Positions 3,288 to 41,490 of a stretch of 46,391 bases of DNA are shown here, piece by piece. Origin of the DNA: Candidatus Omnitrophota bacterium (GTDB lineage Bacteria > Omnitrophota > Gorgyraeia > Gorgyraeales > Gorgyraeaceae); NCBI GenBank assembly GCA_018824145.1, contig JAHJHC010000114.1:1-46391 (forward strand), written 5' to 3'. Numbering within the stretch: position 1 is the stretch's first letter; the number at the start of each line of letters is the position of its first letter. The position numbers and the translations under genes are program-made. The notes beneath the pieces were generated by a model. The model was not told the origin of the DNA, searched no databases, and saw only the letters and a program-made list of their open reading frames with translations.

Positions 3288-3319
3288 TTAAAAATTTGCA
3301 ATTGCAAATTTTTAATTGA
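3284..3319. repeat. Perfect 36-bp palindrome TCAATTAAAAATTTGCAA|TTGCAAATTTTTAATTGA
   Basis: Checked base by base; no loop. Confidence 0.9.
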
Positions 3320-11530: not shown

Positions 11531-12583
11531 TTATTTAACTGCTGCTTCCTTCAACAAAAACTCCATCACCTTCTTATTTCTCATATTCACTGCTATTTCA
11601 TCAAGCAAGTGATTCTCTTCCAAGTATTTTCTTATCTCATCTTTTGATTTTTTATACTGCGCTGCCATTTCTTCGATGCGTTTTTCTAAATCCTCTTTTT
11701 TAATATATATCTTCTCAACTTGTGCGATTTTATCTAATATAAAAAATGCCTTCACCTGGCGCTCTGCCTGTTTCTGTGAATTCGACTCTAACTCTTTTTT
11801 ATCCTTATCTGTCAATGTGAACTTTTTGTCGGGATTTTGCTTTTTCTGAATAGCCTCCATATAAGACAAGCGTTGATTTGCGTCTTTTAACAATCTCTCT
11901 TTCTCGGCATTTACCAGTGAATCCGGGATTTCAAAATTCATCCGATCTGCAAGTTGGTTAATGATCTGTATTTCCAAATCAGCCGCACTTTCGTTTTCAA
12001 GCCTATATTGCAGATTCTTTCGTACGGCATCTTTTAACATCTCTAAATTATCAAATCCTAAATCCTTAGCAAACTCATCATCTATCTCAGGAAGGACTTT
12101 TTCCTTTTCTTGGCTGTCCTTTTTAGGTACATTCTGCGCATTCGCCTCTCTCAATGACTCAATGTTTTTTTGAACATCTTCCTCTTTCACCTCTGCTTTT
12201 TTCTTATTTAATTTCAGGGCCTTATAGTTCTTTAAAGGAATATCCGGCCTTGTCTCAAATGTAGCCTTGTAAGAAAACCCTTCTTTTAAATCGAGTTTCA
12301 CGTCACTTACATCAGGGTATCCTATCGGGTCTAACTTGTATTCATCCAGGATTTTCCTGTAACTCTCAGGAATAAGGTTTTTCATTACCTCTTCTTTTGC
12401 AGTCTTCCCATAGTGAAGTTCCAGCAAATCCTGTGGCGCCTTCCCCACTCTATACCCGGGAACATTGGCAACCTTACCTATACTATTATAGACCTTTTTA
12501 AATTCATCCTCCACTCTTTCAAGCGGAAGTTTTACCTCTACAACCTTTTTGCAATTCTTGAGTTTTTTTATGGATGATTTCAT
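11531..12583 (-). CDS. tig: Trigger factor lacking the central FKBP PPIase domain
   Basis: Ribosome-binding loop variant [10 protein letters not shown]; [13 protein letters not shown] follows the N-domain linker almost directly; 350 aa; upstream of clpP. Confidence 0.9.
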
Positions 12584-12591
12584 TTTTATTT

Positions 12592-12677
12592 AAACGCTAA
12601 TTGTCGTAAATCTAACGCAGATATTCGCGAATAATTTATTTGCGACCATTCGCGTTAGATTTGCGTATATTTGCGTT
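12592..12677. repeat. Long imperfect inverted repeat built of ACGC/TTTGCG-like subunits between lptB and tig
   Basis: AAATCTAACGC...TCGCGAATA mirrored by TATTTGCGA...GCGTTAGATTT. Confidence 0.65.
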
Positions 12678-12680
12678 CAA

Positions 12681-13415
12681 TCACATTCGAAATTTTTCCC
12701 CCAGATAAATCTGGCGCGCCTTTGGATCACTAACCAATACTTCTTTACTTCCTGATATAAGTATTCTTCCATCCGCCATTATATACGAACGGTCAGTTAT
12801 TTCAAGTGTTTCTCTTACATTGTGGTCTGTAAGAAGTATACCCAAACCCTTTTTCTTAAGTCCTGCGATAATCTCCTGGGCATCTGCCACTGCAATAGGG
12901 TCTATGCCACTAAAGGGCTCATCAAGAAGTATAAATAAAGGATTCTTTACCAATGCCCTAGTGATTTCTAATCTGCGTCTCTCTCCTCCTGAAAGTAAAT
13001 AGGCCCTTTTCTTTGCTAAATGACTAATATGCAATTCATCGAGGAGCGTCTTTAACCTCTCTTTACGAGCTGTCCTTGAAATATCAAGTGTCTCAAGTAT
13101 AGCCATTATATTTTCTTCAACAGTGAGCTTTCTAAATATGGATGGTTCCTGTGAAAGATAACCGATTCCATTGCGGGAACGTTTATACATCGTTAGTTTT
13201 GTAATATCCTTGCCGTCAAAGATTATACTCCCTTGTTCCGGTTTCAACATACCTACAATCATGTAGAAAGTAGTAGTCTTTCCAGCGCCATTAGGTCCTA
13301 AAAGCCCTACGATCTCACCTCTTTTAATCCTTATACTTACGCCGTTTACTACTCTCTTACCGTCGTAAGACTTTGCAAGGCCTTCTACTTCAAGTAAATG
13401 TCCGTTATTGTTCAT
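12681..13415 (-). CDS. lptB: LPS export ABC transporter ATPase
   Basis: GPNGAGKTTTFYM, YLSQEPSIFRKL, LSGGERRRLEI, LLDEPFSGIDP, TDHNVRETL, YLGEKF. Confidence 0.97.
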   Translation of the reverse strand: MNNNGHLLEVEGLAKSYDGKRVVNGVSIRIKRGEIVGLLGPNGAGKTTTFYMIVGMLKPEQGSIIFDGKDITKLTMYKRSRNGIGYLSQEPSIFRKLTVEENIMAILETLDISRTARKERLKTLLDELHISHLAKKRAYLLSGGERRRLEITRALVKNPLFILLDEPFSGIDPIAVADAQEIIAGLKKKGLGILLTDHNVRETLEITDRSYIMADGRILISGSKEVLVSDPKARQIYLGEKFRM

Positions 13416-15279: not shown

Positions 15280-15522
15280 GTGATAAGATTGTATTCTCAG
15301 ACAATCGAAGAGATCAAAAAAAGGCATCGCCAAGAATGGCTTCTTATTTCAGTGGACAAGGTAGATGAATCTACTACCACACCTATCTCCGGCAGACTCA
15401 TTGCTCATAGCCCTCAGAGGGATGAAATTTATAAGAAACTACTCGTCTTTAAGCGGAGAAAGCCGGTTCTTATTTCTTACTCCGAAGACACTGCACCTGG
15501 AAACTTTATCACTGGATTCTAA
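15280..15522 (+). CDS. Small hypothetical protein, DUF5678-like
   Basis: EEIKKRHRQEWLLI...GRLIAHSPQRDEIY pattern resembles small proteins found upstream of retropepsins (from recall); true start may be TTG 15289. Confidence 0.7.
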   Translation: MIRLYSQTIEEIKKRHRQEWLLISVDKVDESTTTPISGRLIAHSPQRDEIYKKLLVFKRRKPVLISYSEDTAPGNFITGF

Positions 15523-15528
15523 AGATAA

Positions 15529-15924
15529 ATGGCAAAATTCAAACTAGCATCAGAAAAAGGGTTATTAATCTGCCATGTCAAGATCTCTGGAAAAGGTAAG
15601 CCAGTATTAATGAAAATGGCCATTGATACAGGCACTACTATAACCATCGTCCCCTACGAAGCTGTATTAAGCATTGGTTTAGTTCCTGAAAATTCAAATA
15701 GAACAATAGAAGTAACAACAGGCAGCGGCAGCGTAACACGTCCGATAGTAACCATCCCTAAATTCTCATGTTTTGGATTTACGATCAGAGACCTAGACGT
15801 AATCTGTCACAATCTCCCATCAGAAAGCCCAGTTGAAGGCCTACTGTGTCTAAACTTCCTAAAAACCTTCAAACTAATCCTAGACTTCCCAAAAAATACA
15901 ATCCAAATAGTAAAGAAAAAATAA
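15529..15924 (+). CDS. Retropepsin-like (clan AA) single-domain aspartic protease
   Basis: AIDTGTT catalytic motif; flap EVTTGSG; C-terminal GLLCLNFL (canonical GLLG). Confidence 0.85.
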   Translation: MAKFKLASEKGLLICHVKISGKGKPVLMKMAIDTGTTITIVPYEAVLSIGLVPENSNRTIEVTTGSGSVTRPIVTIPKFSCFGFTIRDLDVICHNLPSESPVEGLLCLNFLKTFKLILDFPKNTIQIVKKK

Positions 15925-15933
15925 TTAAAATAA

Positions 15934-16592
15934 TTGTACCGTTTGCGAATTTAGCTACCCACCTGTCCCTTTTTTCAAGATTAAAAGTGTCCCCATTGTA
16001 AAAAATTGAAAGAAAACCCCATACTACTGTGTCTATATATAAGGAGGTGATAAAATATGGCTAGAATAGGTAGGGTTTACAGTGGTTGTTATTGCTATCA
16101 CATTATTACAAGAGGCAACCAAAAACAAAATGTTTTCTTAAATGAAAAAGACTACGCTAGATATGTTGGCATATTAAAAAGAGCTAAAAGAAAATACAAT
16201 ATTCTACTTTTTTCCTATTGCCTTATGCCAAATCATGTACATCTTTTGATTGAAACAAAATCATCTAGTAATATGTCGAACTTTATGCGCTGGATTAATC
16301 GAGGGTACGCAGCATATTTTAATACAGCTTACCAGAAAACAGGCCACTTGTGGCAAGGCAGGTTTAAGAGTAAACCTATATTAAAAGGGCAATATTTAAT
16401 TCATTGCGGAAACTATATCGAAGCTAACCCTGTTAGAGCAAATATTGCAGATGATATAGCAAACTATAAATGGAGTAGCTATAAAGAAAGATGTCTATTA
16501 TCTAAAAGTTCCATACTAGATGGGATAGTTAGGGGACAGTTTTAATCTTAAAATTGGGGACACTTTGATAGGTGAATTCGCAAACGGTACAA
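15934..16592 (+). mobile_element. 659-bp RAYT cassette bounded by 61-bp imperfect inverted repeats (outer 18 bp perfect)
   Basis: Left arm 15934-15994, right arm 16532-16592; TTGTACCGTTTGCGAATT / AATTCGCAAACGGTACAA; two TGTCCC/GGGACA boxes 24 bp apart in each arm; no target duplication seen. Confidence 0.85.
16057..16545 (+). CDS. REP-associated tyrosine transposase (Y1 HUH, IS200-like superfamily)
   Basis: YHIITRGN, YCLMPNHVHLL (HUH), GHLWQGRFKS, YIEANPVRA (catalytic Tyr), YKWSSY; RBS AAGGAGGTGA. Confidence 0.92.
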   Translation: MARIGRVYSGCYCYHIITRGNQKQNVFLNEKDYARYVGILKRAKRKYNILLFSYCLMPNHVHLLIETKSSSNMSNFMRWINRGYAAYFNTAYQKTGHLWQGRFKSKPILKGQYLIHCGNYIEANPVRANIADDIANYKWSSYKERCLLSKSSILDGIVRGQF

Positions 16593-16601
16593 AGCTCGTT
16601 G

Positions 16602-17051
16602 CTAATTTTGATCTGTGGGGTTTAGTTTTAGAGTGTATGTTTCTTCTTCTTGTTCTAGGACTACACTGTTTTGATTGATCTCAATTATGGTTACACCGCC
16701 TAGAATCTCACCTACCTCTACAACATTATTATTTATAATAGCATATGGGGTATCTTTGTCCCATACAATGCCGTTTAGAATTAAACCCTCTAACGTAGCA
16801 CCCATTGAAGGGCCTAGAAAAAATGGGTCCCTGCCCCATCCCTCTTTTATATCGGATTCTTCTATCTCGGGTATATCAAAAGAGATAGGTGCAGATAAAG
16901 AAGATACTACTTCAGTATTTGCCTTGATTATTAAAAATTTCTTCTTGTGAATTTTTTGAACATTACCAATAACTAAAAATATCAAGAAGATAATGCCAAT
17001 ACCTGTTATTGTAAGTTCAAGCCTCTCTTTTTTACCTAAGTTTTTAAACAT
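16602..17051 (-). CDS. PilP/MshK/GspC-like pilus assembly protein
   Basis: N-terminal TM; WGRDPF; LILNGIVWD...AIINNNVVEVGE...IIEINQNSVVL beta domain; follows pilO. Confidence 0.7.
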   Translation of the reverse strand: MFKNLGKKERLELTITGIGIIFLIFLVIGNVQKIHKKKFLIIKANTEVVSSLSAPISFDIPEIEESDIKEGWGRDPFFLGPSMGATLEGLILNGIVWDKDTPYAIINNNVVEVGEILGGVTIIEINQNSVVLEQEEETYTLKLNPTDQN

Positions 17052-17052
17052 A

Positions 17053-17637
17053 TTATTTCCCGATTATATAAGCGATTAAATCTACCTTGGCCTTTATCTT
17101 AGGTTTAATATCCTCATCTTTTTCTATATCTACTTTTTCTATGGAAATCATAGGTGTTCTATTCATTTCTAGGCTCATAAGGAATTCTCCCAATGCCTGA
17201 TATCTTGACTCAACCCTCAAGGTTAAAGGCATAGATTTGCAAAAATAATCCGAGATTTCAACTTCTCTTCCATTATGATCTTTATATATTTCGATGTTTT
17301 CCGGCTTTAAAGAAATGACATTTATTTTAAAATATCTTGCCTTCTCATTTAGCTGTTTAATTATATCAGACACCTCTTGTTCGGAAGGAAAGGCCCTCTC
17401 AAGTAAATCCACCTTCTCACGCATCTTTATAATATTATCTTTTAGATCGGCCTCTCCGCCGATAAAATTGTAAAGGTCATCCATATCAGTCTTTATTTCT
17501 TTGTATTCCCCAGCCAACCTTTTAATCTCCTTTGACTTAGGGAAATACACGAATTGGAACAATATCAAAACTACTAACACTAAAACACCAACAGTTATGA
17601 TATTTTTTTTATTCTCTACTATAAATTTAATATCCAC
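17053..17637 (-). CDS. pilO: Type IV pilus assembly protein PilO/MshJ-like
   Basis: TM + coiled coil + FPSEQEVSDII...YQALGEFL ferredoxin-like domain. Confidence 0.8.
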   Translation of the reverse strand: MDIKFIVENKKNIITVGVLVLVVLILFQFVYFPKSKEIKRLAGEYKEIKTDMDDLYNFIGGEADLKDNIIKMREKVDLLERAFPSEQEVSDIIKQLNEKARYFKINVISLKPENIEIYKDHNGREVEISDYFCKSMPLTLRVESRYQALGEFLMSLEMNRTPMISIEKVDIEKDEDIKPKIKAKVDLIAYIIGK

Positions 17638-17640
17638 ACC

Positions 17641-19170
17641 CTACCTCGTAAAATCACTGGTTATCTCAAAGTCTAATGCCCCTTGCGGAAAATCTTCGTT
17701 CTTCCCGCTAAATACCAGCTTTACATTCTCAAGTATAGGAGAACGCTCCAAACCTGACATGAATTCGCTCAATTCTTCTCCTTTCAAGATAATACCTGAA
17801 AGCAATAGATTCGGCTCTGTGTCTTTTATAACTAAATTACCCAAGATTACAGAAGGAAGTAAAAGATTACTCATCTCTCTCATTATTTTTCCTGTCTCTA
17901 TAGTGCCACTGGATACAGTATTTACTGCAGAACCGAGCACAACCATCTTGTCTTTAATCAAACTTATATCCTGCATTGTCTCATGGTGGGATTTATAAAT
18001 CTTTATCTCTTCCCTTAAATTAATCGATCTGACGGACAATAATCCGTAAGATATCAAAAATAAAATCCCAAACACAATAGAAACCAATCTTATAGAAATC
18101 CTCTTTAATTCCCTCCCCTTCTCCTCTTTAAATCTCTCCGGAAGCATATTAATATCAGTATCGCTACTTAAAGCCAGGCCAGTCGCCACCGCAATCTCCG
18201 GAAGGGTATTTATTATCTCTACACCTATTTCTCTGGATAAATATTCCTTGAGGCCCTTTAGTTTCGAACCATTGCCTGCCAGTATAACCTTTCTGACAAG
18301 CTCACATTTAAATTGATGTTCACAATATTCCAAAGATGCCTTTATTTGATTCGCAAGCCTTTCCAAGACCGGCCTCATCATAGATAGAATCTTTATATCT
18401 CCGGGAATACCTTGCTCACATTTTATCCTCTCTGCTTCTTCTCTCGAAAGCTCAACCTTACCTTGATCTGATATTAAAACGCCTGTCATTACATCTGTAA
18501 TACTATCTCCGCCTATGGCCACATCCCTTGTAAAACAAAGTTTTTTATTTCCAATAATTGCTATTGTAGTTACGACACTTCCTATATCCACGATACTTAT
18601 AGTCTCTTGGGGTGAAATGAGATCAAAATAATCCACATAGCGAGCAAGTGCGTATTCAGTTGGAACAACACTTTTTATCTTCAACCCAAGACTATTTATC
18701 TCTTTCACCTTGGCTTCGACATCTGCTTCTTTATAAACTACTGCGAGCAACTCTATCTTCTTAGATTCACCCTCTTCTTTTTCTCCCAGAATACTAAATT
18801 TTATCTTAGCCTTATCAAGATTAAACTGAACCTGGTCTTTCAATTCCCACCTTAATGCCTCTTCTATTTCTTCGTGAGGCATAAAAGGGATGCTTACATT
18901 TTTTATTGCCAATGCATCTCCTTTAAAATTTATACATACCCGATCATCAGTGCCTATATCCATCCTAGTGACTAAATCTTTTAACTCATGAGTCTCAGCT
19001 ACTAAGGTATCCTTAAGAGGGACATCTTTAACGCCCTCTCTCACTTTCACTGTTCTAAAATGTTTAGTACCCAAATCCAGGCCTATCAGGTTTCCAGACT
19101 TTTGCCTTAAACCTAAATCTATAAGGATGGATTCTATCTCTTTTTTCAATTCATCTATAATATTTTTCAT
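17641..19170 (-). CDS. pilM: PilM-PilN fusion (MshI/GspL-like)
   Basis: IGLDLG, IVDIGS, IGGDSIT, ILAGNGSKLKGL (actin-like PilM), then INMLP + TM + PilN domain in one ORF. Confidence 0.85.
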   Translation of the reverse strand: MKNIIDELKKEIESILIDLGLRQKSGNLIGLDLGTKHFRTVKVREGVKDVPLKDTLVAETHELKDLVTRMDIGTDDRVCINFKGDALAIKNVSIPFMPHEEIEEALRWELKDQVQFNLDKAKIKFSILGEKEEGESKKIELLAVVYKEADVEAKVKEINSLGLKIKSVVPTEYALARYVDYFDLISPQETISIVDIGSVVTTIAIIGNKKLCFTRDVAIGGDSITDVMTGVLISDQGKVELSREEAERIKCEQGIPGDIKILSMMRPVLERLANQIKASLEYCEHQFKCELVRKVILAGNGSKLKGLKEYLSREIGVEIINTLPEIAVATGLALSSDTDINMLPERFKEEKGRELKRISIRLVSIVFGILFLISYGLLSVRSINLREEIKIYKSHHETMQDISLIKDKMVVLGSAVNTVSSGTIETGKIMREMSNLLLPSVILGNLVIKDTEPNLLLSGIILKGEELSEFMSGLERSPILENVKLVFSGKNEDFPQGALDFEITSDFTR

Positions 19171-19182
19171 GGCTCTTAGACA

Positions 19183-19191
19183 ATTATATCA
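19183..19191 (-). promoter_or_regulatory. Extended -10 (TGaTATAAT) upstream of pilM-N
   Basis: Consensus TATAAT at 19188-19183; possible -35 TGGTCA at 19211-19206 supplied by the repeat end. Confidence 0.5.
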
Positions 19192-19205
19192 CAACTATAA
19201 TTATT

Positions 19206-19342
19206 TGACCAGTTGGGGAGTTTTTCGCTGCTTTTCCCGACTGGTCATCCTGAAGCCCGAAGGGCTGAAGGATCTCTCATGAGATCCCTCGTCACTTCGT
19301 TCCTCGGGATGAGGGGTCGGGGTATTTTTCACCGCCCCCTCA
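19206..19342. repeat. Composite REP-like element, second copy of the GTCATCC..GATCTC/GAGATC..GGATGA family
   Basis: Core 19244-19312 flanked by hairpins TGACCAGT..ACTGGTCA (19206-19247) and TGAGGGG..CCCCTCA (19310-19342). Confidence 0.8.
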
Positions 19343-19343
19343 A

Positions 19344-20774
19344 TTACAGGCCTTCCCAAGAATCTGGTTCAACTGAAACATATCCGTCAAATCCCGCTGG
19401 AGGGTTTGGAAGACTTGTTGCACTATAGGTTATTGTAGAATTAACAATACGATCATTATTGTACTGACTAGAAACTACTGCACCTGTAATCGTTGCGTTA
19501 TTCAGTTGCGTGTATCCGGAACTGGCCCCCCATTGATAAACAAGGCCTGTAACTGTGGCACCATTATTTATAATCAATCCCGGGTCTCTACCTGAAACAC
19601 TTATTACACTGCCAGAGACTAATGTGCCACTATCTGTAATCTGTAAATAATTATTATTATCAGAGACATCACTGACATATAAAGTCGAATTTGTTACCTG
19701 AGCCCCGCTCTGCACAATAATCCTTCTTGTTGCAATAATAAAGGCTGAAGCAATATCTGTAGAGGTTGCAGCATGTTTACGGATCCTCACTAACTGGTTG
19801 TTGTTACTCTGGGCCCTTGAATAAAGATACGCACCGCTATTTATTGTCACATTAGTATCATTTTGTGTAGAATTAACCGTTAAACTCCTTGCTGCAAGAA
19901 AATAAATATTTCCCCCTGAAGGCGTTATGGTAAGTGTCCCTGATGCACTATTAGGAGAGTGTAAGTTAATATTCTGTTTTGCTACGATGTAGCCATAACC
20001 TGATATGGTAATATTGCCCGTTGTATTAAAATTTTTGCAACCAATAATATTACCGGTCAATGTCAAGTCTGTAGACTGATTGCGGTTGCTATTAGTGCCA
20101 TAGGTATTGATATACGTATTAAAGGAACTCATTAAATTACTATAAGATGTCTCATCAATCTGTGGCATTGATGGATACGGTGAATCTATTTCTACTTCTG
20201 TGTAGCTTCCTGCACCTGTTACATTTTCAGTAGTAGGACAATAAGAATTACCTGTTACAGAACAACCACTTTTTACATCTGTAGTCCCTCTTGACCAGAG
20301 ATCACCATTGATTGTAGTAGAAGTTCTCAATTCTAACCAAGCCCCTGTATCCCTGCCCCAATACACAGCAAATCTCATAGCGCCAGGAAGTTTCTTTGCT
20401 GTAACATTTATATAACGCGTTACATCCTGGCCTTCTGATGCACTAGTGACTGTTCCTGTAGACTTTATGTCTACACTCGTTGCACTGACATTGGATACTG
20501 TTATGGTAAATGAGCCGTTAGCAAAAGATTTTGTCTGGTTAGTCTCATCTGTCCAATCCGTATCATCATTTAACTGTTGCAGATACCACTCTAAACCTGC
20601 ATGGGCAAGCCAGAAGGCCTGTTGTGACTGAAAAGCTCCCACAGAAGAATAACCTGTCTTTGAAGTCAATAACGAGACTCCCACCAGTCCAAATAAAAAA
20701 CATATGAACATAATAGCAACAGCTGCTACTAAGGCCTGGCCTTTTTCATTACTCGTCCGTATAATCTTTTTCAT
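19344..20774 (-). CDS. PilX-like minor pilin with large Asn/Thr/Ser-rich, probably beta-helical C-terminal domain (tip adhesin candidate)
   Basis: KG|QALV prepilin lacking Glu5; QAFWLAHAGLE PilX motif; terminal SWE motif; start reassigned to ATG 20774. Confidence 0.8.
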   Translation of the reverse strand: MKKIIRTSNEKGQALVAAVAIMFICFLFGLVGVSLLTSKTGYSSVGAFQSQQAFWLAHAGLEWYLQQLNDDTDWTDETNQTKSFANGSFTITVSNVSATSVDIKSTGTVTSASEGQDVTRYINVTAKKLPGAMRFAVYWGRDTGAWLELRTSTTINGDLWSRGTTDVKSGCSVTGNSYCPTTENVTGAGSYTEVEIDSPYPSMPQIDETSYSNLMSSFNTYINTYGTNSNRNQSTDLTLTGNIIGCKNFNTTGNITISGYGYIVAKQNINLHSPNSASGTLTITPSGGNIYFLAARSLTVNSTQNDTNVTINSGAYLYSRAQSNNNQLVRIRKHAATSTDIASAFIIATRRIIVQSGAQVTNSTLYVSDVSDNNNYLQITDSGTLVSGSVISVSGRDPGLIINNGATVTGLVYQWGASSGYTQLNNATITGAVVSSQYNNDRIVNSTITYSATSLPNPPAGFDGYVSVEPDSWEGL

Positions 20775-20787
20775 TTTTCTATAACCA

Positions 20788-21297
20788 TTAAAAAAATAGA
20801 TCACTCATGTACCTCAAGTTTCTGGGCCTTACCTGTGATTTATAATAAAGTGTCTGGCCACTACTTTGAAATTCAAGAGATATATCAATGCGTCTTATGT
20901 CAGTATTGTTTGGGCTAACAAGGGGTGTTGCTACGGTAGTGCCGTCATCATCATAATAAGTGAAGCTTAAACTCTGCACGTCACCTGCTAATATATCAGA
21001 ATTTCGCATTAAGTTTGTACTACTCAAAGAATAACTTATAGTATTACTATTGACATCATCAAACGAAAACTGAGAAGAAATAGCAGTATTAACACTTCCA
21101 TCATCATCTAATCTTCGTATCTCTCTTACCATCCTAGTCAAAGCTACATCTGCTGCCTGATCTATTGAAGTTCTAGCAATTAAAAAAGCAAGCGATTCTG
21201 ATATGCTTAATAATAAAGGCACCGCAATACTAGCAATAACACCTAGAATAACTATAACTATCACAAGTTCTATTAGAGTAAAGCCTTTGCTTTTCAT
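20788..21297 (-). CDS. Minor pilin PilW/MshO-like
   Basis: KG|FTLIEL; RMVREIR; LSFTYYD; VRPRNL. Confidence 0.85.
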   Translation of the reverse strand: MKSKGFTLIELVIVIVILGVIASIAVPLLLSISESLAFLIARTSIDQAADVALTRMVREIRRLDDDGSVNTAISSQFSFDDVNSNTISYSLSSTNLMRNSDILAGDVQSLSFTYYDDDGTTVATPLVSPNNTDIRRIDISLEFQSSGQTLYYKSQVRPRNLRYMSDLFF

Positions 21298-21302
21298 GTA
21301 AT

Positions 21303-21701
21303 TTAATTATTCGTAACAACCGTCTTCAAAGTAACGCTTCCTATAATGCTATTCGACACAGTTACTTCTACTTGTTTGTAGTCAGTCATACCAGGGTCCG
21401 TTGCTAAAGCAACTGGCACAGCACTCACAGTGACCGCATAGGTGTAATTTGAAAAATTTCCAGTAAATGCCGTTGAACTCTCATTAACAATGTCAGAATA
21501 TCGCAAGGCAGTAACCCTTTCCATCTCCTGCCCAGCCAATGCTGTAGCTACCTGCATAACCTCTGGTTGTGCATATGTCTTCATAACCTGGCTGAATAAA
21601 AGTGAAAGTGAAACCACACATATACCCAATATTACAATGACCATTACTAATTCAACTAGAGTGAAACCCTGTATTTTTTTCTTAAATAAATTATGTCGCA
21701 T
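21303..21701 (-). CDS. Minor pilin PilV/MshD-like
   Basis: QG|FTLVEL; ATALAGQEMERV; YKQVEVTV. Confidence 0.85.
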   Translation of the reverse strand: MRHNLFKKKIQGFTLVELVMVIVILGICVVSLSLLFSQVMKTYAQPEVMQVATALAGQEMERVTALRYSDIVNESSTAFTGNFSNYTYAVTVSAVPVALATDPGMTDYKQVEVTVSNSIIGSVTLKTVVTNN

Positions 21702-21732
21702 CCTGAATGTATACCCCTCCAGCAGGTATATT

Positions 21733-22302
21733 CTATTGGTTAAATTGCAATAACAGTGGTTGTAGTTGCACGGGTACTGGCACTGGCGTTAGTACACTCT
21801 GAATAAACACTCTCCCAGTATTCTGTGTCACTCTAATATCTCTTCTTCTATTAACTCTAACCCTAGCAGGATCTGCTAATGGAGTCGCAATTCCAGTTGC
21901 AGTATTATAGTCATAAGGGGTGCCAAACATATCAAAAAGCAAATCGCGGTTTGCTACATTAAAAAATACCCAGGTAATATCTACCCCTACAAATTCATCT
22001 TGATTTAACTGAATTGTAAAATTGCCTCTAGTTCGAGGGTCTGTTGCGGTTATCCAACTCCCTGGAGAATTCTCTATATATACTGTATAATTATCACTGG
22101 CAGTACTAAACGATACTCTAGTTCGTTTTTGAATGTCCATCGCCAATCTCTGCGTATACCTTATATCTGCCTGCATCTTTTCAGCAGCCAGATTTATCCT
22201 TAGATTAGTTAGGTCTATCTTGGGGATAGCTATTGCTGCCAGAATACCTACAACAGCTATTATAAAGATTAACTCAATTAAGGTAAAACCACGTTTATTC
22301 AT
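21733..22302 (-). CDS. Minor pilin FimT/GspH/MshC-like
   Basis: RG|FTLIEL; AAEKMQADIRYTQRLAM; FDMFGTP; TGRV; start probably ATG 22302. Confidence 0.85.
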   Translation of the reverse strand: MNKRGFTLIELIFIIAVVGILAAIAIPKIDLTNLRINLAAEKMQADIRYTQRLAMDIQKRTRVSFSTASDNYTVYIENSPGSWITATDPRTRGNFTIQLNQDEFVGVDITWVFFNVANRDLLFDMFGTPYDYNTATGIATPLADPARVRVNRRRDIRVTQNTGRVFIQSVLTPVPVPVQLQPLLLQFNQ

Positions 22303-22384
22303 AATAATATACATATAACCATACCCTATACCAGTAAAAAAATCAAGCCACGAAGTTTATGGTCCTATTACTACGCCATATACA

Positions 22385-22423
22385 AAATTAGGGACACATC
22401 CCTTTGGGATGTGTCCCTAATTT
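22385..22423. repeat. GGGACACATCCC hairpin (18-bp perfect stem, 3-nt loop) covering the 3' end of the YfhO gene
   Basis: AAATTAGGGACACATCCC-TTT-GGGATGTGTCCCTAATTT. Confidence 0.9.
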
Positions 22424-24715
22424 CGGCCATATCAACAATATTGCAACAATCGTTCCTAATATTATAATCAGTCCTATCTTAAAAGAAAATGGCTCATATA
22501 TAAATCTTATAACATGTTCCCCCTGTTCAAGATGCACTGCCCTTAAAATGTAATCAGCTCTATAAATCTTATCACGCCTGCCATCAATATAAACCTTCCA
22601 TCCCGGATAATATGAGTCGCTTAAGATTAGAAACTTTGGAACGTTTACCTGCGCTTCGATTATGACTTCGTTAGGAGAGTATTTTAGGATACTCGCTTTT
22701 TCGTACAGCGGATATTGCTTCCACTTTCCCGCAAAAAGAAATCCCTCTTCCAATATCACCTCTTTTGACGGATCAAAGTCCTTACTTTTCAATCTTTCAA
22801 GAATCACCTCTTCATCCTTAATCACAACTGGCTTATCCGCCAAAAATGCCCTCGGCAACACATTCTCATTTTCATATACATTCACCTTTTCACCTTTCTT
22901 AACCACCTTATATCCTTCTGCCTTAAAATCCTTTGGTGAAATTACATATTTTACATTCAAAAGATCCAGGAGATTGGTGCGGTCAGGTGAATCCTGTTTT
23001 ATAATTGCCTTCATTACCTCTTCATGTCTCCTATTATAAAGCGAGCCATAGCCGTATGCATCGGATATCCCAAAACTGACTCCTCTATTGGCTGCCATCC
23101 TTTCTTTTAAAGCAAAATATCCCTCAAAATAATCCCGTTCAGGCACAAATATATTCTGCACTAATGTCGTCGGAGAATCGAATATCCTAAAAAGACTCTT
23201 GTCTTTTTTTAAAAATTCGACGTTGCTGCCTGGCTCCAAAAATTCATTGATATCCATGTTTAGATAGACATTTTTATTAGCGGTAAATATATCCAGTATA
23301 GCTACGGATAGTAACAGAGGTATGACTAAATTCAATTTTAACGCCTTCTTTGAACCTAAAAACAATAATAACGATAAAACCATAAATGTCCCTATCGCCC
23401 TCTTCAAATTATATATCCCCACAAGGACAAATTGCCCTAGTTCATTCTTTTTATCCATGAAACCAGGGACTATATCCAAAATAAATCTATGCAAAAAACT
23501 GTATATCTCCACGAATCTTATATTGATTATTAGATAAAAAAATGACCCTATAAAACCAATAGCTAACATCGCCTTCAAAAACCCTTTGAGAGCAACAATA
23601 TTCTTCCTGTAATAATCCAATCCCATCCCTGCTAAGATTGACAAAGAAAATGCTACCATAAAGAAGAATTTTATTGGATATCTTGAGAGATTAAAGCCCG
23701 GCATGACCTTGTATAAAAAATAATAAACCGGCGTGTATCTACCAAAACAAATCACTAAACCAAGCGCTAATATATAAAAGATTGCCTTCCTTCTTTTCGA
23801 TATATCAAACTTTAAAGAAATAAACGCGCATATTACGGTAAAAATCCCCATATAATATACCAAAAGCCAGCTCTGCCTTGTCCAGTAATTCTTATACAGG
23901 TAATCTGATTCGCTCAAATAAGGCACAAATAAATCCAAAAGCGCATATATAGGCAATGACCACATGGATGCTTCACTAAAATCCATGCCTGCCCTGGAGG
24001 AATGTCTTACAAATTCCAGAAAAGGTAATATCTGGAAACATGAAAGCCCTGCTGTGACAAGCAGGGCAATAAGAATTGTTTTAAACCGCAATCGGGTGAT
24101 CAATGCCAAAATAAAAACCGTACCCAACAAAATCGCCGGCTCGCCTCCTAAAAACATCAGTGTTAAAAAAATCCCGGTAATTATGGAATTTTTAATCCAG
24201 TCATGTCTTAACGCCCGTTCATAAAATAAAATCGCAAGGGGAAGCCATATAACAGAAGCAAGTGAGGCTAATAAGTTTATCACGGAAATAATATATCCAC
24301 TGAACATAAAAGCTGTGGCTGAAAGAAAAGATGCGTATCTGGAATAACCCCAGCTTCTCATTAAGATATAAGTAAAAAAACCTGCTAAAAAAATATGCAA
24401 TATTATGAAATAGTTGAATCCTTGAGGATACGAAAATAATAAGTAGACTATACTTAGGGGGTAAAACACGCAGGTCTGAAGCTCTGCAAGATGCGGGCTC
24501 CCGCAGTGGATATACGGATTCCATAAAGGGATGCGACCTGCTATAAATTCAGTTACGCTGAATTCTCTTAAAGGATAAAAAAATCTCGAAAGGTCCCTGT
24601 GGATAAATATCTTATTTCCGAATAAAACTTCGGAAAAAAAGATACAGGTAAGAACAACTAAAATAAAAATGGGGATGGCATCTTTCATCCATCCCCATTT
24701 AGTATTTGTGGTCAT
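22388..24715 (-). CDS. YfhO-family polytopic GT-C glycosyltransferase
   Basis: DLSRFFYP, IPLWNPY..G.P, FYP, FMFSGY, RYPIKF, LLNVKY, VYENENVLPRA, LILSDSYYPGWKVYIDG. Confidence 0.88.
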   Translation of the reverse strand: MTTNTKWGWMKDAIPIFILVVLTCIFFSEVLFGNKIFIHRDLSRFFYPLREFSVTEFIAGRIPLWNPYIHCGSPHLAELQTCVFYPLSIVYLLFSYPQGFNYFIILHIFLAGFFTYILMRSWGYSRYASFLSATAFMFSGYIISVINLLASLASVIWLPLAILFYERALRHDWIKNSIITGIFLTLMFLGGEPAILLGTVFILALITRLRFKTILIALLVTAGLSCFQILPFLEFVRHSSRAGMDFSEASMWSLPIYALLDLFVPYLSESDYLYKNYWTRQSWLLVYYMGIFTVICAFISLKFDISKRRKAIFYILALGLVICFGRYTPVYYFLYKVMPGFNLSRYPIKFFFMVAFSLSILAGMGLDYYRKNIVALKGFLKAMLAIGFIGSFFYLIINIRFVEIYSFLHRFILDIVPGFMDKKNELGQFVLVGIYNLKRAIGTFMVLSLLLFLGSKKALKLNLVIPLLLSVAILDIFTANKNVYLNMDINEFLEPGSNVEFLKKDKSLFRIFDSPTTLVQNIFVPERDYFEGYFALKERMAANRGVSFGISDAYGYGSLYNRRHEEVMKAIIKQDSPDRTNLLDLLNVKYVISPKDFKAEGYKVVKKGEKVNVYENENVLPRAFLADKPVVIKDEEVILERLKSKDFDPSKEVILEEGFLFAGKWKQYPLYEKASILKYSPNEVIIEAQVNVPKFLILSDSYYPGWKVYIDGRRDKIYRADYILRAVHLEQGEHVIRFIYEPFSFKIGLIIILGTIVAILLIWPKLGTHPKGMCP

Positions 24716-24729
24716 CTGATTTAAAAATT

Positions 24730-24800
24730 AAAATTCGGGACACATCCCAATTTTCAAACTTTGTAACTACATGTGAAAATTGGGATGTGTCCCGAATTTT
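24730..24800. repeat. GGGACACATCCC hairpin (27-bp perfect stem, 17-nt loop) between pilin and YfhO genes
   Basis: AAAATTCGGGACACATCCCAATTTTCA / TGAAAATTGGGATGTGTCCCGAATTTT. Confidence 0.92.
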
Positions 24801-24811
24801 CCTGAAGTTTT

Positions 24812-25213
24812 TTACCAACTAGACGTATTCACTGTCCCGTCGGAATACGCACCTGCAATACCAGAAGCAGATATATACCACCAGCCATTTGCAGATGTTG
24901 CAGTTCCGCTAGGCGCAGCTGCTGTAGCTGCCACACCCGTAGCATCATTTAATTTATTCGTCGGGATACGTTCATCTGCAAATAAACCAGTTGTAATTGC
25001 AGAAGGAAATGCAGCAGTACCAGAAGTAGCGCTCTTTGCATATTCAATAGCAATCACTGAACGAAGTGCACCCAGGCCACTCTTTGTAGCGCCTTGTTTA
25101 GCCTCTCCTGTCAGGTCTACAAATTTAGGTATAGCGATTGCAGACAATATTCCTAATATAACAATAACCATTACAAGTTCTATAAGGGTAAATCCCTTAT
25201 TTCTATTCTTCAT
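24812..25213 (-). CDS. Major type IV pilin, MshA-like
   Basis: KG|FTLIELVMVIVILGILSAIAIPKFVDL; RBS AGGAGGAG; Ala/Ser/Thr-rich, no Cys. Confidence 0.9.
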   Translation of the reverse strand: MKNRNKGFTLIELVMVIVILGILSAIAIPKFVDLTGEAKQGATKSGLGALRSVIAIEYAKSATSGTAAFPSAITTGLFADERIPTNKLNDATGVAATAAAPSGTATSANGWWYISASGIAGAYSDGTVNTSSW

Positions 25214-25575
25214 TTAACTCCTCCTGTCGTTATTTTCCCAGTCTTATTATCGTATATAAACCTGCGACTATATGGATCTACAGGATATCCTTCTTTGTCC
25301 TGCATCTGGTGTTCTAAATAACTCTTGCCGCATAAACTATCTTCTTCTGAAGCCTTGCACTTCTTATTAAGATCCCTCAAATCCTGCGGGTACTGTCCTT
25401 CCAATATCCTATATAATTCTAATGAATATTTCAGATTTGTCAATTGATTTTCCAATGCAACTGAACGCGCCTCTCGAAGATTTAAAACCCAATATACTGT
25501 AAATATGCCTGAAAGGATAAATATAATTACTATAGAAAATATAAAGTCTATTAAGCCCCGGCCCTTATTATGCAT
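25210..25575 (-). CDS. Atypical pilin-like protein (MshF/GspG-like)
   Basis: KG|RGLID degenerate cleavage site, TM, GQYPQDL, DPYSRRFIYD. Confidence 0.65.
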   Translation of the reverse strand: MHNKGRGLIDFIFSIVIIFILSGIFTVYWVLNLREARSVALENQLTNLKYSLELYRILEGQYPQDLRDLNKKCKASEEDSLCGKSYLEHQMQDKEGYPVDPYSRRFIYDNKTGKITTGGVK

Positions 25576-25806
25576 TTAATACATCTTATAGAGATAATAG
25601 GCTACAAAAAATAATGTTGCGCTTGATAACAAAAGACAGACTCCCGTTCCTTTATTATACTTGTAAATAAAATAATCAATGCCGCTTATAAATTCATTCA
25701 TAAGTTTATTCGCCTTTTTTTCTATACTTCTTAGTCTCTCCGGCATCAGCAATAATAACACACCGCTCAGAAAGGCCACTATTCCTGAAAATATTAAAAA
25801 TCTCAT
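25576..25806 (-). CDS. Small two-TM hypothetical protein
   Basis: Two hydrophobic segments; RBS GAGGTG; stop abuts the next start. Confidence 0.65.
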   Translation of the reverse strand: MRFLIFSGIVAFLSGVLLLLMPERLRSIEKKANKLMNEFISGIDYFIYKYNKGTGVCLLLSSATLFFVAYYLYKMY

Positions 25807-25824
25807 ATCTACACCTCTCCTTAC

Positions 25825-27042
25825 TTAATGCCTAAACAGGGTAATCAAATTCCATATAGGCATAAATATTGCAAGAGCTAAAACTAGAACCATAATCCCG
25901 ATTACAAATATTAAAATAGGCTCTATAAGAACCGTTAGATTTTTTACAGTATAACTTATCTGTGAATCATAATAATCCGAAACCCTTAGAAGCAACTCAT
26001 CTATCTTCCCTGTCTCTTCGCCAATCTTCACCATCTGGATGACAATAGAAGGGAAAAGCCCGCTTACTTTCATCGGCTCTGCCAATCCCTTACCCTCTTT
26101 AACACCTTCGATAATATTCTCGACTGAATTTGCGATGATCCTATTTCCAATCGCATCTTTTACGATATATAGCGTATCTATAATAGAGATACCGCTTGCT
26201 GAAAGCACAGATGTAAGCCTGCTGAACCGCGACATCGAAATCTTTAAAATAAGCAGGCCAAAAATAGGCGTCTTTAATTTAAGACTGTCCCATAAGGGCC
26301 TACCTACTTTACTATTAATAAAATATCTAAATGCACCTACTAGAAAGACTATCCCAATGATTATAAACATCCAATAATGCACCAATACAAAATTTAAACC
26401 TAAAAGAACCCTTGTGGGAAGAGGAAGCTGGGTATTGAACCTCATAAAAAGCACGCTGAACTTGGGTATGATAAACATAACTACCAGAGGAAATGCTATA
26501 GAAATAGTAAGCAAGACCAACAATGGATATCGAGTAGCCTGCTTTATCTTCATGTTAAGATCGTGCTCTTGTTCAAGAAGGTTTGCCAGCCTATCCAGGA
26601 CATTGTCCAGTATCCCGGCTGCTTCCCCTGCACGCAGCATATTTATATAGACTTCTGAAAATATATTCGTAAACTTAGAGATAGATTCCGAAAGGCTTTT
26701 TCCTGATTCTATATCACGGGTTATTTCTCCTATAACATCCTTAAAATATGCATTGGTACTTTGCTCCCTGATGCTCTCTAAGCTAACCAGAATAGGTACC
26801 CCAGCGTGTTGAAGCGTCATAAGCTGCCGCGTAAAAACTATCAATTCTTCCATATTGACTCTACGGAAAAGTTTCTCAAACGGGTTGTATTTTTTAAATG
26901 CGGAGCTTTGTTCCTTAATTACGGTAGGAGTATAGCCCATCTTTTTAAGATGCCGGGCAACCGAGTCTCTGGACTCACCTTCTATCGTGCCTTTCGAGGC
27001 ACGTCCATATTTATCGCGGATTTTGTAGCGGAAATTCGGCAT
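25825..27042 (-). CDS. pilC: Pilus platform protein PilC/GspF/MshG
   Basis: FTRQLMTL..AGVP, AGEAAGIL, ATRYP, IGEETG, LIEP. Confidence 0.95.
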   Translation of the reverse strand: MPNFRYKIRDKYGRASKGTIEGESRDSVARHLKKMGYTPTVIKEQSSAFKKYNPFEKLFRRVNMEELIVFTRQLMTLQHAGVPILVSLESIREQSTNAYFKDVIGEITRDIESGKSLSESISKFTNIFSEVYINMLRAGEAAGILDNVLDRLANLLEQEHDLNMKIKQATRYPLLVLLTISIAFPLVVMFIIPKFSVLFMRFNTQLPLPTRVLLGLNFVLVHYWMFIIIGIVFLVGAFRYFINSKVGRPLWDSLKLKTPIFGLLILKISMSRFSRLTSVLSASGISIIDTLYIVKDAIGNRIIANSVENIIEGVKEGKGLAEPMKVSGLFPSIVIQMVKIGEETGKIDELLLRVSDYYDSQISYTVKNLTVLIEPILIFVIGIMVLVLALAIFMPIWNLITLFRH

Positions 27043-27050
27043 TGGGTCCT

Positions 27051-28736
27051 TTATTTTTCCTGTGTTGCTTTTATAACTTCCTCTGCCGTAGTAATACCCT
27101 TCAAGACCTTATCCAAACCATCATCCCTCAATGTCTTCATGCCCATCTGGAGGGCCTTATTCTTTATCAGATCGCTTGAGGCCCTATCAACAATCATTTT
27201 TCTGATTTCTTCAGTGACCACTAAAAGCTCGAATATACCGACTCTCCCTTTATAGCCTGTATCCCTGCAAGTATTACATCCCTTGCCTCTAAACAATTCC
27301 TTAGCTTCCACTCCCAAACCCTTTAGAATTTCTTCTGACGGTGTGAAAGACTCTTTACATTTTTCGCAGATCTTTCTCACAAGCCTCTGGGCCAAGATCC
27401 CTATAACAGAACTAGATATCAAAAATGGCTCCACCTCCATATCCAGGAGCCTAGCCAAGGCGCCACTGGCATCATTTGTATGAAGTGTTGATAAAACCAG
27501 GTGTCCTGTTAATGCTGCCTGCACGCTAATCTCAGCAGTCTCCCTATCCCTTATCTCCCCCACCATTATTATATCAGGGTCCTGCCTTAAGATAGATCTC
27601 AAGCCTGAGGCAAAACCAAAACCAGCCTTTGGATTTATCTGAGACTGTCTTATTCTACCCAAATGGTATTCAACAGGATCTTCTATCGTAATAATATTCT
27701 TCTCTTCCGAATCAATTGTAGAAAGGGCTGAATAAAGGGTAGTAGTCTTTCCGCTGCCAGTAGGCCCTGTGACCAGTATTATTCCGTAAGGATGTCTTAT
27801 CAATGCATCAAATTCCTTTTGTCCACTGGCAGAAAAACCCAACATGTCAAGGCCCAGCAATATCGCCCCTTTATCCAGGATCCTTATAACAATGTTCTCT
27901 CCATATATGGTAGGAAAGGTAGAAACCCTCAAATCGATATCTCTATTCTCCACTTTTATATTAAACCTTCCGTCCTGGGGTTTTCTTTTTTCGGAAATAT
28001 CGATCCTGGAAAGCACCTTGATCCTGGAAAGAAGCGCCAGCTCCAGATGTTTGGGCGGAGAAAACACCTCATGCAAAATCCCGTCAACCCTGAACCTGAC
28101 CTTCAGCGTATCTTCTTGCGGTTCAATATGTATATCACTTGCCCTATCCTTTATTGCCTGTATGATTATAAGATTTACAAGTTTTATTATAGGGGCCTTG
28201 TCTGCTATTTCAGCGAGTTTCTCTGAATCTAATTCACCCTCTGTAACAACATCTTTCTTTTTCTCCTTATCTATATCCTTTATCACTTCATCAACCGAAC
28301 CCTGCACTCCATAATACTGATCTATTGCACCCAATATGGCGCCTTCGCTTGCCAATACAGGCTCTATATCACACTTAGACACCCTGGATAAATCATCTAT
28401 TCCCATAATATCCTTAGGATTCACCATTGCTACTGTCATGGCATTCCCGATTTTAAAAATAGGGATTATTTTATACTTGCGTGCCATACTTTCCGGAATA
28501 AGCTTTAAGGTCTCGGCATCTACCAGATAATTCGATAGGTCGATGTACGGCACCTCCAAAATCTCCGAGAATGCCTGCGTATAATCATCTTCGCTAACTA
28601 CTCCTGCCTTTACCAGCAATCTCCCCACAGGGATGCCTTTTCTCTTAGAATCCTCTTTCATCTTATCGATCTGCTCTTGTGTAATAAGGCTACGTTTCAA
28701 GAGGATCTGTTCTATAGTCTTCTTAGTCATATTCAA
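27051..28736 (-). CDS. pilB: Pilus assembly ATPase PilB/GspE/MshE
   Basis: ASDIHIEP, PQDGR, GPTGSGKTTT, TIEDPVE, LRQDPD, TGHLVLSTLHTN, CxxC-CxxC. Confidence 0.95.
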   Translation of the reverse strand: MNMTKKTIEQILLKRSLITQEQIDKMKEDSKRKGIPVGRLLVKAGVVSEDDYTQAFSEILEVPYIDLSNYLVDAETLKLIPESMARKYKIIPIFKIGNAMTVAMVNPKDIMGIDDLSRVSKCDIEPVLASEGAILGAIDQYYGVQGSVDEVIKDIDKEKKKDVVTEGELDSEKLAEIADKAPIIKLVNLIIIQAIKDRASDIHIEPQEDTLKVRFRVDGILHEVFSPPKHLELALLSRIKVLSRIDISEKRKPQDGRFNIKVENRDIDLRVSTFPTIYGENIVIRILDKGAILLGLDMLGFSASGQKEFDALIRHPYGIILVTGPTGSGKTTTLYSALSTIDSEEKNIITIEDPVEYHLGRIRQSQINPKAGFGFASGLRSILRQDPDIIMVGEIRDRETAEISVQAALTGHLVLSTLHTNDASGALARLLDMEVEPFLISSSVIGILAQRLVRKICEKCKESFTPSEEILKGLGVEAKELFRGKGCNTCRDTGYKGRVGIFELLVVTEEIRKMIVDRASSDLIKNKALQMGMKTLRDDGLDKVLKGITTAEEVIKATQEK

Positions 28737-29107
28737 ACCTTAAGGATAGCCTTTATCTTGTCAACTACAATATCTAGCTCAAACGGTTTTTCAAAATATC
28801 CGCTGATTTTTTGGAAGGCGAATAAATCCTTCACCTTATCTTCTTCTTTCCCACTCAACATCAAAACAGGGACATCTTTCAGTTTCGGCAGTTTCCGGAC
28901 CTCCTTCAAGCAACTATATCCATCCATCTTAGGCATCATAATATCCATAATGATCAAATCAGGCTCTTCTTCTTCTGCTACCTTCAGGCCTACATCCCCA
29001 TCATTTGCCATTACAACATTAAAACCCTCCTGCTGCAATCTGATCCTGATCATTTTCTGTATATCTTCTTCATCATCTATTATTAAAATCTTCTTCCCTT
29101 CTCCCAT
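28733..29107 (-). CDS. Single-domain response regulator (receiver)
   Basis: IIDDE, IIMDIMMPKMDG, MLSG, EKPF; stop overlaps pilB start. Confidence 0.92.
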   Translation of the reverse strand: MGEGKKILIIDDEEDIQKMIRIRLQQEGFNVVMANDGDVGLKVAEEEEPDLIIMDIMMPKMDGYSCLKEVRKLPKLKDVPVLMLSGKEEDKVKDLFAFQKISGYFEKPFELDIVVDKIKAILKV

Positions 29108-29149
29108 TTTGTCCTCCGTTATTTAATCTTCAAGGCTGAACATATTGCC

Positions 29150-29530
29150 TTACGCTGTTTGCTGACCCATAGCATCATTTATCTTCTTCAGCAAATCATT
29201 TGTCTCAAATGGCTTCTCTATGAAATATGCTATATTCTCAAGGGCAAAAAGATCACCGACCTTCTGTTTCTCTTTGGCAGTCAATATAATTACAGGTATA
29301 TCTTTGAATCTCTCAACCTTTCTCATTTCTCTCAATGCACTATACCCATCCTTCTTAGGAAGCACAATGTCCAACACAACTACATCAGGACATCTTGTCT
29401 GCATAATCTCAAACATCTCGTCTGCATCCTGCGCGCCATCAAATTCATACCCTGCTGACTCTACCCTTAATTTTAACATGTTAAGTAAATCCACATCGTC
29501 ATCTACAATTAAAACCCTCTTCTTATCCAT
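29150..29530 (-). CDS. Single-domain response regulator (receiver)
   Basis: IVDDD, VLDIVLPKKDG, ILTA, EKPF; start overlaps kdsC end. Confidence 0.92.
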   Translation of the reverse strand: MDKKRVLIVDDDVDLLNMLKLRVESAGYEFDGAQDADEMFEIMQTRCPDVVVLDIVLPKKDGYSALREMRKVERFKDIPVIILTAKEKQKVGDLFALENIAYFIEKPFETNDLLKKINDAMGQQTA

Positions 29531-40202: not shown

Positions 40203-40237
40203 TTTTAATTTTACCTTGTGGTTTTGTCTTTTTACTT

Positions 40238-41347: not shown

Positions 41348-41357
41348 AAAAATTATA

Positions 41358-41490
41358 ATGACAAATGACAAAATTCAAAGCACAAAATAAATTCAAAATT
41401 CAAATAACAAATTTCAAAACAGAAGTTTTGTCATTTGATATTTGTGATTTGTCATTATTTTGGTATTTGTGATTTGTCATTTGAAATTTT
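41358..41490. repeat. Heptamer-periodic inverted repeat array (CAAAnnn units facing TTTGTnA units)
   Basis: CAAATGA CAAAATT CAAAGCA...CAAATAA CAAATTT then TTTGTCA TTTGATA TTTGTGA TTTGTCA...TTTGTGA TTTGTCA TTTGAAA. Confidence 0.8.

Follow-up and report, generated by a model that had tools for sequence, protein, structure and literature searches.

The closest described relatives of the elements analysed here are REPINs, in which two inverted repeats and a spacer fold into a long hairpin (Bertels and Rainey, 2011; PMC3116915), and TIRtrons, tyrosine transposase genes (TIRYT) that carry long terminal inverted repeats (TIRs) instead of GTAG repetitive extragenic palindromes (REPs) (Di Nocera, De Gregorio and Rocco, 2013; PMC3733652). 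The TIRs of TIRtrons have a GGGGWSAS motif in common, form moderately abundant families, often occur as dimers and have intragenic copies (PMC3733652). Abundant flanking 16-mers have been tied mainly to groups 2 and 3 of the REP-associated tyrosine transposases (RAYTs) (Bertels et al., 2017; 10.1101/119735). We draw on parts of these three accounts. We analysed a pair of perfect hairpins on either side of a yfhO-family gene in a 46,391-nt stretch of DNA from a Candidatus Omnitrophota bacterium (contig JAHJHC010000114.1 of assembly GCA_018824145.1); this whole stretch is referred to as the window. Our literature search found no paper that links Omnitrophota with REPs. The two hairpins are very probably independent insertions of a REPIN-type element, mobilized in trans by a Y1 enzyme encoded on another contig (C67) of the same metagenome-assembled genome (MAG), which landed in an ancestral pilus operon. 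Contigs of the MAG are denoted by C-numbers, and loci or contigs from other records by L-numbers.

Hairpin 2 (24730..24800) is a full-length copy of the element, with 27-nt arms (24730-24756 and 24774-24800; arm AAAATTCGGGACACATCCCAATTTTCA) around a 17-nt spacer. Hairpin 1 (22385..22423) is a truncated copy, in which 18-nt arms (22385-22402 and 22406-22423; arm AAATTAGGGACACATCCC, an 'A' variant) enclose a 3-nt loop and the inner AATTTTC of the arm is missing. An inverted-repeat search of the window recovered both, with arms that are 100% complementary, and thereby confirmed the perfect 18-bp and 27-bp stems described in an earlier interpretation made from the letters of the window (the sequence-only reading). 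The motif GGGACACATCCC is found on both strands of each hairpin; its four sites in the window are all located within the arms, against 0.10 expected from shuffled sequences. As RNA, hairpin 2 folds with -42.9 kcal/mol (z -9.4 relative to shuffles) and hairpin 1 with -35.1 kcal/mol (z -6.9); the values for single-stranded DNA (ssDNA) are -31.6 and -19.4 kcal/mol, respectively. Both hairpins themselves are far beyond chance. A scan of positions 22300-24900 against Rfam returned no family at its gathering score, and generic long-hairpin (microRNA precursor) models reached at most 35 bits, with cut-offs of at least 60.

Exactly one long open reading frame (ORF) lies between the hairpins, as had been noted before. 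It is that of a yfhO-family gene on the minus strand, encoding a GT-C membrane glycosyltransferase of 775 aa (22388..24715; Pfam YfhO PF09586, 95.8 bits), and translation bears out that hairpin 1, read on the minus strand, specifies the last 11 residues of YfhO (KLGTHPKGMCP) and the TAA stop. A minus-strand gene for a type IV pilin-like protein of 133 aa with an N-terminal methylation motif (24812..25213; Pfam N_methyl) immediately precedes hairpin 2, which fills most of the gap between this gene and yfhO (71 nt of 96). The next gene downstream of hairpin 1, on the same strand, encodes a pilin-like protein of 193 aa (21733..22314; N_methyl).

The hairpins are members of a family that is dispersed over the MAG, which we term family A. 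The assembly has 149 contigs, 1.73 Mb and 39% G+C, with a CheckM-type completeness of 90.9% and contamination of 0.56%. The genome-wide count that the sequence-only reading had proposed as a check gives 41 exact GGGACACATCCC sites, and a search with the 23-nt arm at up to five mismatches gives 49 matches, compared with none in the reversed genome. Family A comprises 23 hairpins on 20 contigs and four single arms. Its unit, two inverted repeats of ~25 nt around a variable spacer, has the architecture of a REPIN, and the arm consensus is AAATTCGGGACACATCCCAATTTTC. The median stem is 27 bp long, and a 12-nt core is perfectly paired in 21 of the 23 hairpins; spacers measure 0-28 nt. Sub-family variants (C36, C67:5128, C129, C116, C121:313 and hairpin 1 of the window) have the same change in each of their two arms, whether this is an A at position 6, ..CATCCTATTTTT or ..CACCCCATTTTT. 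Three of the four single arms have 3-4 mismatches, and the sole perfect one flanks the transposase on C67.

Twenty-two of the 23 hairpins are located between genes or at gene ends, with gene positions taken from a crude custom ORF picker. Eighteen occupy co-directional gaps, two divergent gaps and one a convergent gap; one is at a contig end, and the remaining copy is inside a gene, in frame within folC. The co-directional share of the classifiable hairpins (18 of 21) matches that of all gaps in the genome (1290 of 1487), so that no orientation preference beyond this baseline is seen. Clustering is mild: four elements are on the 14.3-kb contig C67, and two are 2.6 kb apart on C136. Outside the MAG, a 19-mer scan of public data gave five single matches in the genome_contigs set, about the number predicted by chance (roughly four expected in 596 Gb, by our own estimate), and public matches were accepted only if a repeated search showed enrichment or if they had a hairpin partner or the tandem GGGGAATTC lead-in. 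A 2-kb, G+C-rich metagenome contig of a clearly different organism (L047) carries at least three family-A-like hairpins with GGGACACATCCCATTTTCC arms.

Family A has all the features that define REPINs, save direct evidence of movement: an inverted doublet, an over-represented and mostly extragenic family, more doublets than singlets, and a RAYT flanked by the repeat. With the REPIN-RAYT systems, as far as the parts of PMC3116915 used here describe them, it shares inverted doublets with a spacer, a long hairpin, dozens of mostly extragenic copies, a strong excess of doublets over singlets (23 to 4), copies of the repeat on the flanks of a Y1/HUH transposase gene, and the pairing of distinct repeat families with distinct transposase paralogues in one genome. 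It differs from them in its Omnitrophota host, the lack of a GTAG tag, the low copy number, the diversity of spacers in both sequence and length, and a longer transposase (230-245 aa) that scores below the NCBIfam equivalog cut-off. The likeness to TIRtrons, again as portrayed in parts of the source (PMC3733652), concerns the moderately abundant TIR families, the dimers and a flank that overlaps the 3' end of a gene. The family-A sequence [C/A]GGGACAC fits GGGGWSAS at seven of eight positions, and the flanks of a second Y1 transposase gene, located in the window, fit it on both sides (GGGGACAC and GGGGACAG). Judged by these sequence features, family A and its partner transposase represent, in Omnitrophota, a type of element already described, either as REPIN-RAYT or as TIRtron/TIRYT with the GGGGWSAS motif.

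A further likeness is to the REP/BIME elements of E. coli and their TnpA-REP enzyme, although the repeat sequences are not similar. A single family-A arm also folds, as ssDNA, into a bulged mini-hairpin, AATT(C)GGGA-CACA-TCCCAATT (-6.1 kcal/mol, z -5.0). The E. coli TnpA-REP is reportedly (work of 2012 by Ton-Hoang and by Messing) an HUH/Y1 enzyme that recognizes a small imperfect DNA hairpin and cleaves and joins ssDNA.

The most likely partner of family A, to go by the flanking repeats, is a Y1/HUH transposase of 245 aa on the minus strand of C67 (C67:12397-13134; Pfam Y1_Tnp PF01797, 57.0 bits). A consensus family-A hairpin is found at C67:13163-13234, 28 nt upstream of the start of the longest transposase ORF, and an inverted consensus single arm (C67:12416-12438) overlaps the 3' end of the gene and encodes its last residues. 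The assembly has five Y1_Tnp genes with pairwise identities of up to 66%, and no near-identical duplicates are among them. One of the five is the window paralogue (16057..16545, plus strand), which encodes a protein of 162 aa of the RAYT/TIRYT type; at 67.3 bits it passes the PF01797 cut-off of 23, as does the C67 protein. The motifs NH[IV]H and Y-I-E-x-N-P-V-R-A are visible by eye in both proteins, and we take them to be the HUH motif and the region of the catalytic Tyr. The sequence-only reading had seen the hairpins as non-autonomous, REPIN-like partners of a RAYT-type Y1 transposase, a view that the 23-hairpin family and the flanks of the C67 gene support, with a different transposase as the likely partner.

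Homologues of the C67 protein are present in 255 of 401 sampled genomes of the phylum (E <= 1e-20). We inspected the flanks at 10 (L052-L060, L062) of the 29 homologue loci returned. A GGGACA[CG] arm is located just upstream of the homologue at all ten loci (40-53% identity) and an inverted arm just downstream at seven. The six closest homologues (48-53% identity) carry GGGACACATCC[CT], and the more distant ones (40-45%) GGGACAG-type cores; the inner arm sequence varies with the transposase clade across genomes. The arm at L052 has the same 24 nt as the 'A' variant of family A. A perfect-stem scan of the 29 loci detected long hairpins of like build at four (L058, L067, L072 and L080). In a record titled Ca. 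Auribacter fodinae (G432; phylum Ca. Auribacterota in the NCBI taxonomy), a 230-aa homologue with 48% identity (Y1_Tnp, 68 bits) is bracketed by inverted arms with the same core, the arm reading GGGGACAC; that genome has 14 core sites, one of them a full hairpin, against none for a control pattern. The ~18-nt core GGGACACATCCCAATTTT is found unchanged between lineages, including this record from another candidate phylum, with transposases that are just 48-53% identical.

Several observations bear on the mobility of family A. Three hairpins at unrelated loci (argJ/argC, a solute-binding protein gene (SBP)/secG, and two ABC-transporter genes) have the spacer ATGAAAGAGA in common, one of them a base shorter, which suggests that the dimer copies as a unit. 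The in-frame copy (C72:6645-6712; L085:846-913) is located in a folC-like gene of the Mur ligase type, where it makes up an exact insertion of 21 codons (..GKFGTHPNFRARKIREKLGCV..) between conserved blocks that is absent from the orthologues of seven out of seven relatives. Two sites on C121 differ from near-identical metagenome contigs (L037 and L046, 96-99.9% identical to the MAG). At C121:10574-10648 only the left arm is present there and 57 alignment columns are missing, and at C121:313-385 the spacer is inverted. These differences could represent a true flip-flop or deletion polymorphism or an assembly effect.

A separate family of small palindromes that start with a GTAG-type tag (TGTAGCTGCAGCAC..GTGCTGC) has a copy close by (C121:391-417) and about 15-20 others (C8, C48, C110 and C133 among them); the copy at C121:391-417 is absent from the near-identical contig L037.

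The genes around the window hairpins have a conserved arrangement. Of 37 further genomes from the same family, 24 encode a YfhO orthologue with 58-71% identity, and we compared 11 yfhO loci (L017-L027) from other genera of that family. The operon order is T2SSE-T2SSF-orf76-T2SSG-pilin133-YfhO-pilin193-pilin132-pilin169. All 11 loci retain the order pilin133-YfhO-pilin193, with T2SSF/T2SSG conserved upstream and the minor pilins downstream, and their 133-aa pilins are 72-88% identical to the one in the window. The family-A 18-mer, searched at up to one mismatch, occurs in none of 40 relatives, 24 of them from the same family and all of other genera. The sequence-only reading had suggested comparing the pilin-fimT interval across relatives, and yfhO is conserved there without family-A hairpins. 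On the evidence of synteny, yfhO belonged to the ancestral pilus operon and is not cargo. The pilin-yfhO gap is 96 nt in the window, compared with 9-22 nt in six of the seven relatives in which it is measurable and 71 nt in the seventh (L017).

The relatives differ in the C-terminal tail of YfhO, which in L020, L021 and L026 contains other repeats or hairpins. Because of this variability and these other repeats, the 3' end of yfhO seems to be a tolerant landing site. The repeats at the three loci are a GGGGGACACAATACTAATTAA direct repeat, a TCAAGACCAGGTCTTAA hairpin and a CTTCGTCGCTTCG-type repeat, some of which reach the stop codon.

We hypothesize that family A is mobilized in trans by a single cognate HUH/Y1 tyrosine transposase, the one on C67 and not its window paralogue. 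By analogy with TnpA-REP of E. coli, the C67 enzyme would recognize the small arm hairpin in ssDNA, and cleavage and joining of the Y1 type would follow, with the dimer as the usual spreading unit. One element would have inserted on each side of yfhO, in short intergenic spacers, and one of the two would have rewritten the variable C-terminal tail of YfhO. The stable stem-loops and their T-rich tracts probably now serve as leaky terminators or as elements that stabilize and protect 3' ends, which would split the operon into pilin, yfhO and minor pilin parts.

Some of our results weigh against this model. The link to the C67 enzyme is based on flanking and co-occurrence, not on activity, and because C67 and the window are separate contigs of the MAG their co-residence depends on binning; yet family A is found on 20 contigs, including both. 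With 71.5 bits the C67 protein, like the window protein with 77.5 bits, is below the cut-off of 80 for NCBIfam REP_Tyr_transpos (NF047646). A phmmer search of the C67 protein against PDB sequences gave no match at E <= 0.01, and since no solved relative was found the catalytic residues are assigned by eye only. The spacers of the 23 hairpins are nearly all different, so that a strict model in which the REPIN copies as a unit fits worse than in the Pseudomonas cases. Finally, neither a transposition intermediate nor an empty-site allele of the window hairpins was seen in the contigs of four runs, a type of data in which rare variants are dropped. These were Logan contigs aligned to 21700-25300, from the likely source of the MAG (X1) and from other studies (X2, X3 and X5); the window hairpins or their arms are present in runs of three studies.

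Among the alternatives, the one that fares best, and is still rather unlikely, is that the hairpins are kept mainly as host regulators, with a mobile origin of secondary importance. As terminators or mRNA stabilizers, they would tune the ratios of pilin, YfhO and minor pilins. A role of REPs in termination and mRNA stability has been hypothesized (PMC3733652, in the part used here). The very stable RNA stems agree with it, as does the T-rich tract that follows each hairpin on the transcribed minus strand, and the pilin gene that immediately precedes hairpin 2 is highly conserved in the relatives. A further point in its favour is that the runs of three studies yielded both hairpins, or the arms. 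A promoter and terminator scan of 16500-29200 found 11 terminator-like sites, a number near the 8.0 +/- 2.8 expected from shuffles. Within the hairpins it flagged only the small arm hairpins with their T-rich minus-strand tails (24750-24735 and 22403-22390), as the long loops exceed the limits of the scanner. In the six relatives with a gap of 9-22 nt, however, the pilin-yfhO interval is too short for a 71-nt hairpin, the co-directional share of family A is that of the genome baseline, and one copy is in frame within folC.

We also consider a more speculative extension, to which we give little credence. The REPIN pair would have been co-opted as operon punctuation that isolates yfhO as an expression unit, and recombination between the palindromes, which share 18 identical bases, could allow rare deletion or inversion of yfhO and so lead to heterogeneity in pilus glycosylation. 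As a separate matter, the unchanged ~18-nt core would speak for unusually tight co-constraint of protein and DNA or for horizontal spread of the pair.

The sequence-only reading had named the nearby RAYT, the window Y1 transposase (16057-16545), as the partner of the hairpins. That this enzyme mobilizes family A, alone or alongside the C67 enzyme, is improbable, and the window gene is probably not the partner, as its flanks indicate. The right flank does contain AAATTGGGGACAC (16551-16563), which differs from the outer arm AAATT(A/C)GGGACAC at one of 13 positions, exactly the 12/13 match reported earlier; the GGGACA core is held in common, and the window and C67 proteins have 35% identity. Neither flank of the window gene contains the rest of the arm, ATCCCAATTTTC, whereas consensus family-A arms flank the C67 gene. 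The window gene has instead imperfect TIRs of ~62 nt, each of which begins on the outside with TTGTACCGTTTGCGAATT and contains two GGGACA[CG] motifs. The left TIR (15934..15995, plus strand) has the outer TTGTACCGTTTGCGAATT followed by two TGTCCC motifs, and the right TIR (16532..16595, minus strand), which reads GGGGACAG .. GGGGACAC .. AATTCGCAAACGGTACAA, overlaps the 3' end of the ORF. They belong to a distinct family, family B, found at 13 further loci of the MAG (for example C100:12300-12420, C30, C110, C27 and C108); at the C100 locus two TIRs stand back to back, with no gene. Family-B copies often adjoin a second hairpin family with GTACCGTTTGC arms (C38, C6, C131, C18, C72, C1 and C24). 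The tracking of inner arm sequence with transposase clade across genomes likewise argues against a shared partner. From these comparisons, the 12/13 match is a reflection of a GGGACA core common to a super-family of transposase-linked repeats in Omnitrophota, not of a cognate relation.

Repeats are also found near other Y1 genes of the MAG. A four-copy repeat, GGGACA[CT]AT[CT]CCCAATTCC..GTGTGTAACAA[AG]CCTAC, is located at C14:9783, C14:11668, C125:2196 and C125:16344, and one member is near the C125 Y1 transposase, a paralogue 66% identical to the window gene. The Y1 gene of C114 (C114:3625-4188) is flanked on both sides by a palindrome-containing repeat (..CATATCTAGATATG..), which is also present twice beside the C67 transposase locus (C67:13250-13400). 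In the window, a module of a small ORF and a retropepsin-like Asp_protease_2 gene (15280-15924) lies directly to the left of the window-transposase TIR. A like module (DUF5678-like + Asp protease + SEC-C) is located between two family-A-like hairpins on the Hainich metagenome contig L049 (1062-1879). Further long imperfect inverted repeats in the window (3284-3533, 12577-12693, 40141-40251 and 41355-41488) are unrelated to family A.

An attractive claim of the sequence-only reading was that a RAYT-mobilized cassette, with the two hairpins as its ends, delivered yfhO or allows swapping of a pilin-modification gene, which would make a RAYT-linked surface-variation system. We regard this as very improbable. 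Two family members that are 2.3 kb apart and delimit exactly one gene invite the idea, family-A elements do cluster mildly on C67 and C136, and the two-gene module on L049 has a similar hairpin on either side. Delivery of yfhO by the hairpins is contradicted by the presence of the gene between the same pilin neighbours in 11 of 11 loci and by the absence of the 18-mer from all 40 relatives, an outcome that the sequence-only reading itself had named as one that would refute it. When 23-27 elements were placed at random over the 1785 gene gaps given by the same ORF picker, 23-30% of 20,000 trials left at least one gene with an element on either side, and the bracketing of a single gene is therefore not beyond chance (P about 0.23-0.30). 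Other close pairs of family A enclose argC-rpsI-rplM on C67 and, on C136, the genes of an oligopeptide ABC permease and its binding protein, and the 16 neighbours scanned, at 8 of the 27 elements, are all housekeeping genes. Nothing seen in these genes ties the family to surface variation. Nor did the swapping of a cassette find support in excision junctions, of which there were none in the contigs of the four runs over 21700-25300. A mobile cassette that carries yfhO was accordingly rejected, and the cassette and surface-variation idea is refuted by the synteny.

It is hardly credible that the hairpins are palindromic protein-binding or DNA-uptake-type sites unrelated to transposition, a candidate suggested by the adjacent pilus genes and by the resemblance of conserved arms with free spacers to paired uptake sequences, and rejected on copy number (just ~27 elements in 1.73 Mb) and on the flanking of Y1 transposases by the arms in 10 of 10 homologue loci and one further record.

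The reading of the two hairpins as independent REPIN-type insertions corrects an attractive but wrong view of a transposase-linked cassette that swaps a pilin-modification gene, and it documents a REPIN/TIR-dimer family and its partner transposase in Omnitrophota. Family-A repeats mark lineage-specific insertions, and they can change the ends of proteins, as in the tail of YfhO, or add 21 in-frame codons, as in folC. They are also a probable cause of breaks in MAG assemblies and of errors by gene callers. Of greater biological interest, and independent of the hairpins, is the family-wide placement of a YfhO-type GT-C enzyme after a pilin gene. Its position directly after the conserved 133-aa pilin in 11 of 11 genomes makes this YfhO-family enzyme a candidate for a dedicated pilin glycosyltransferase.

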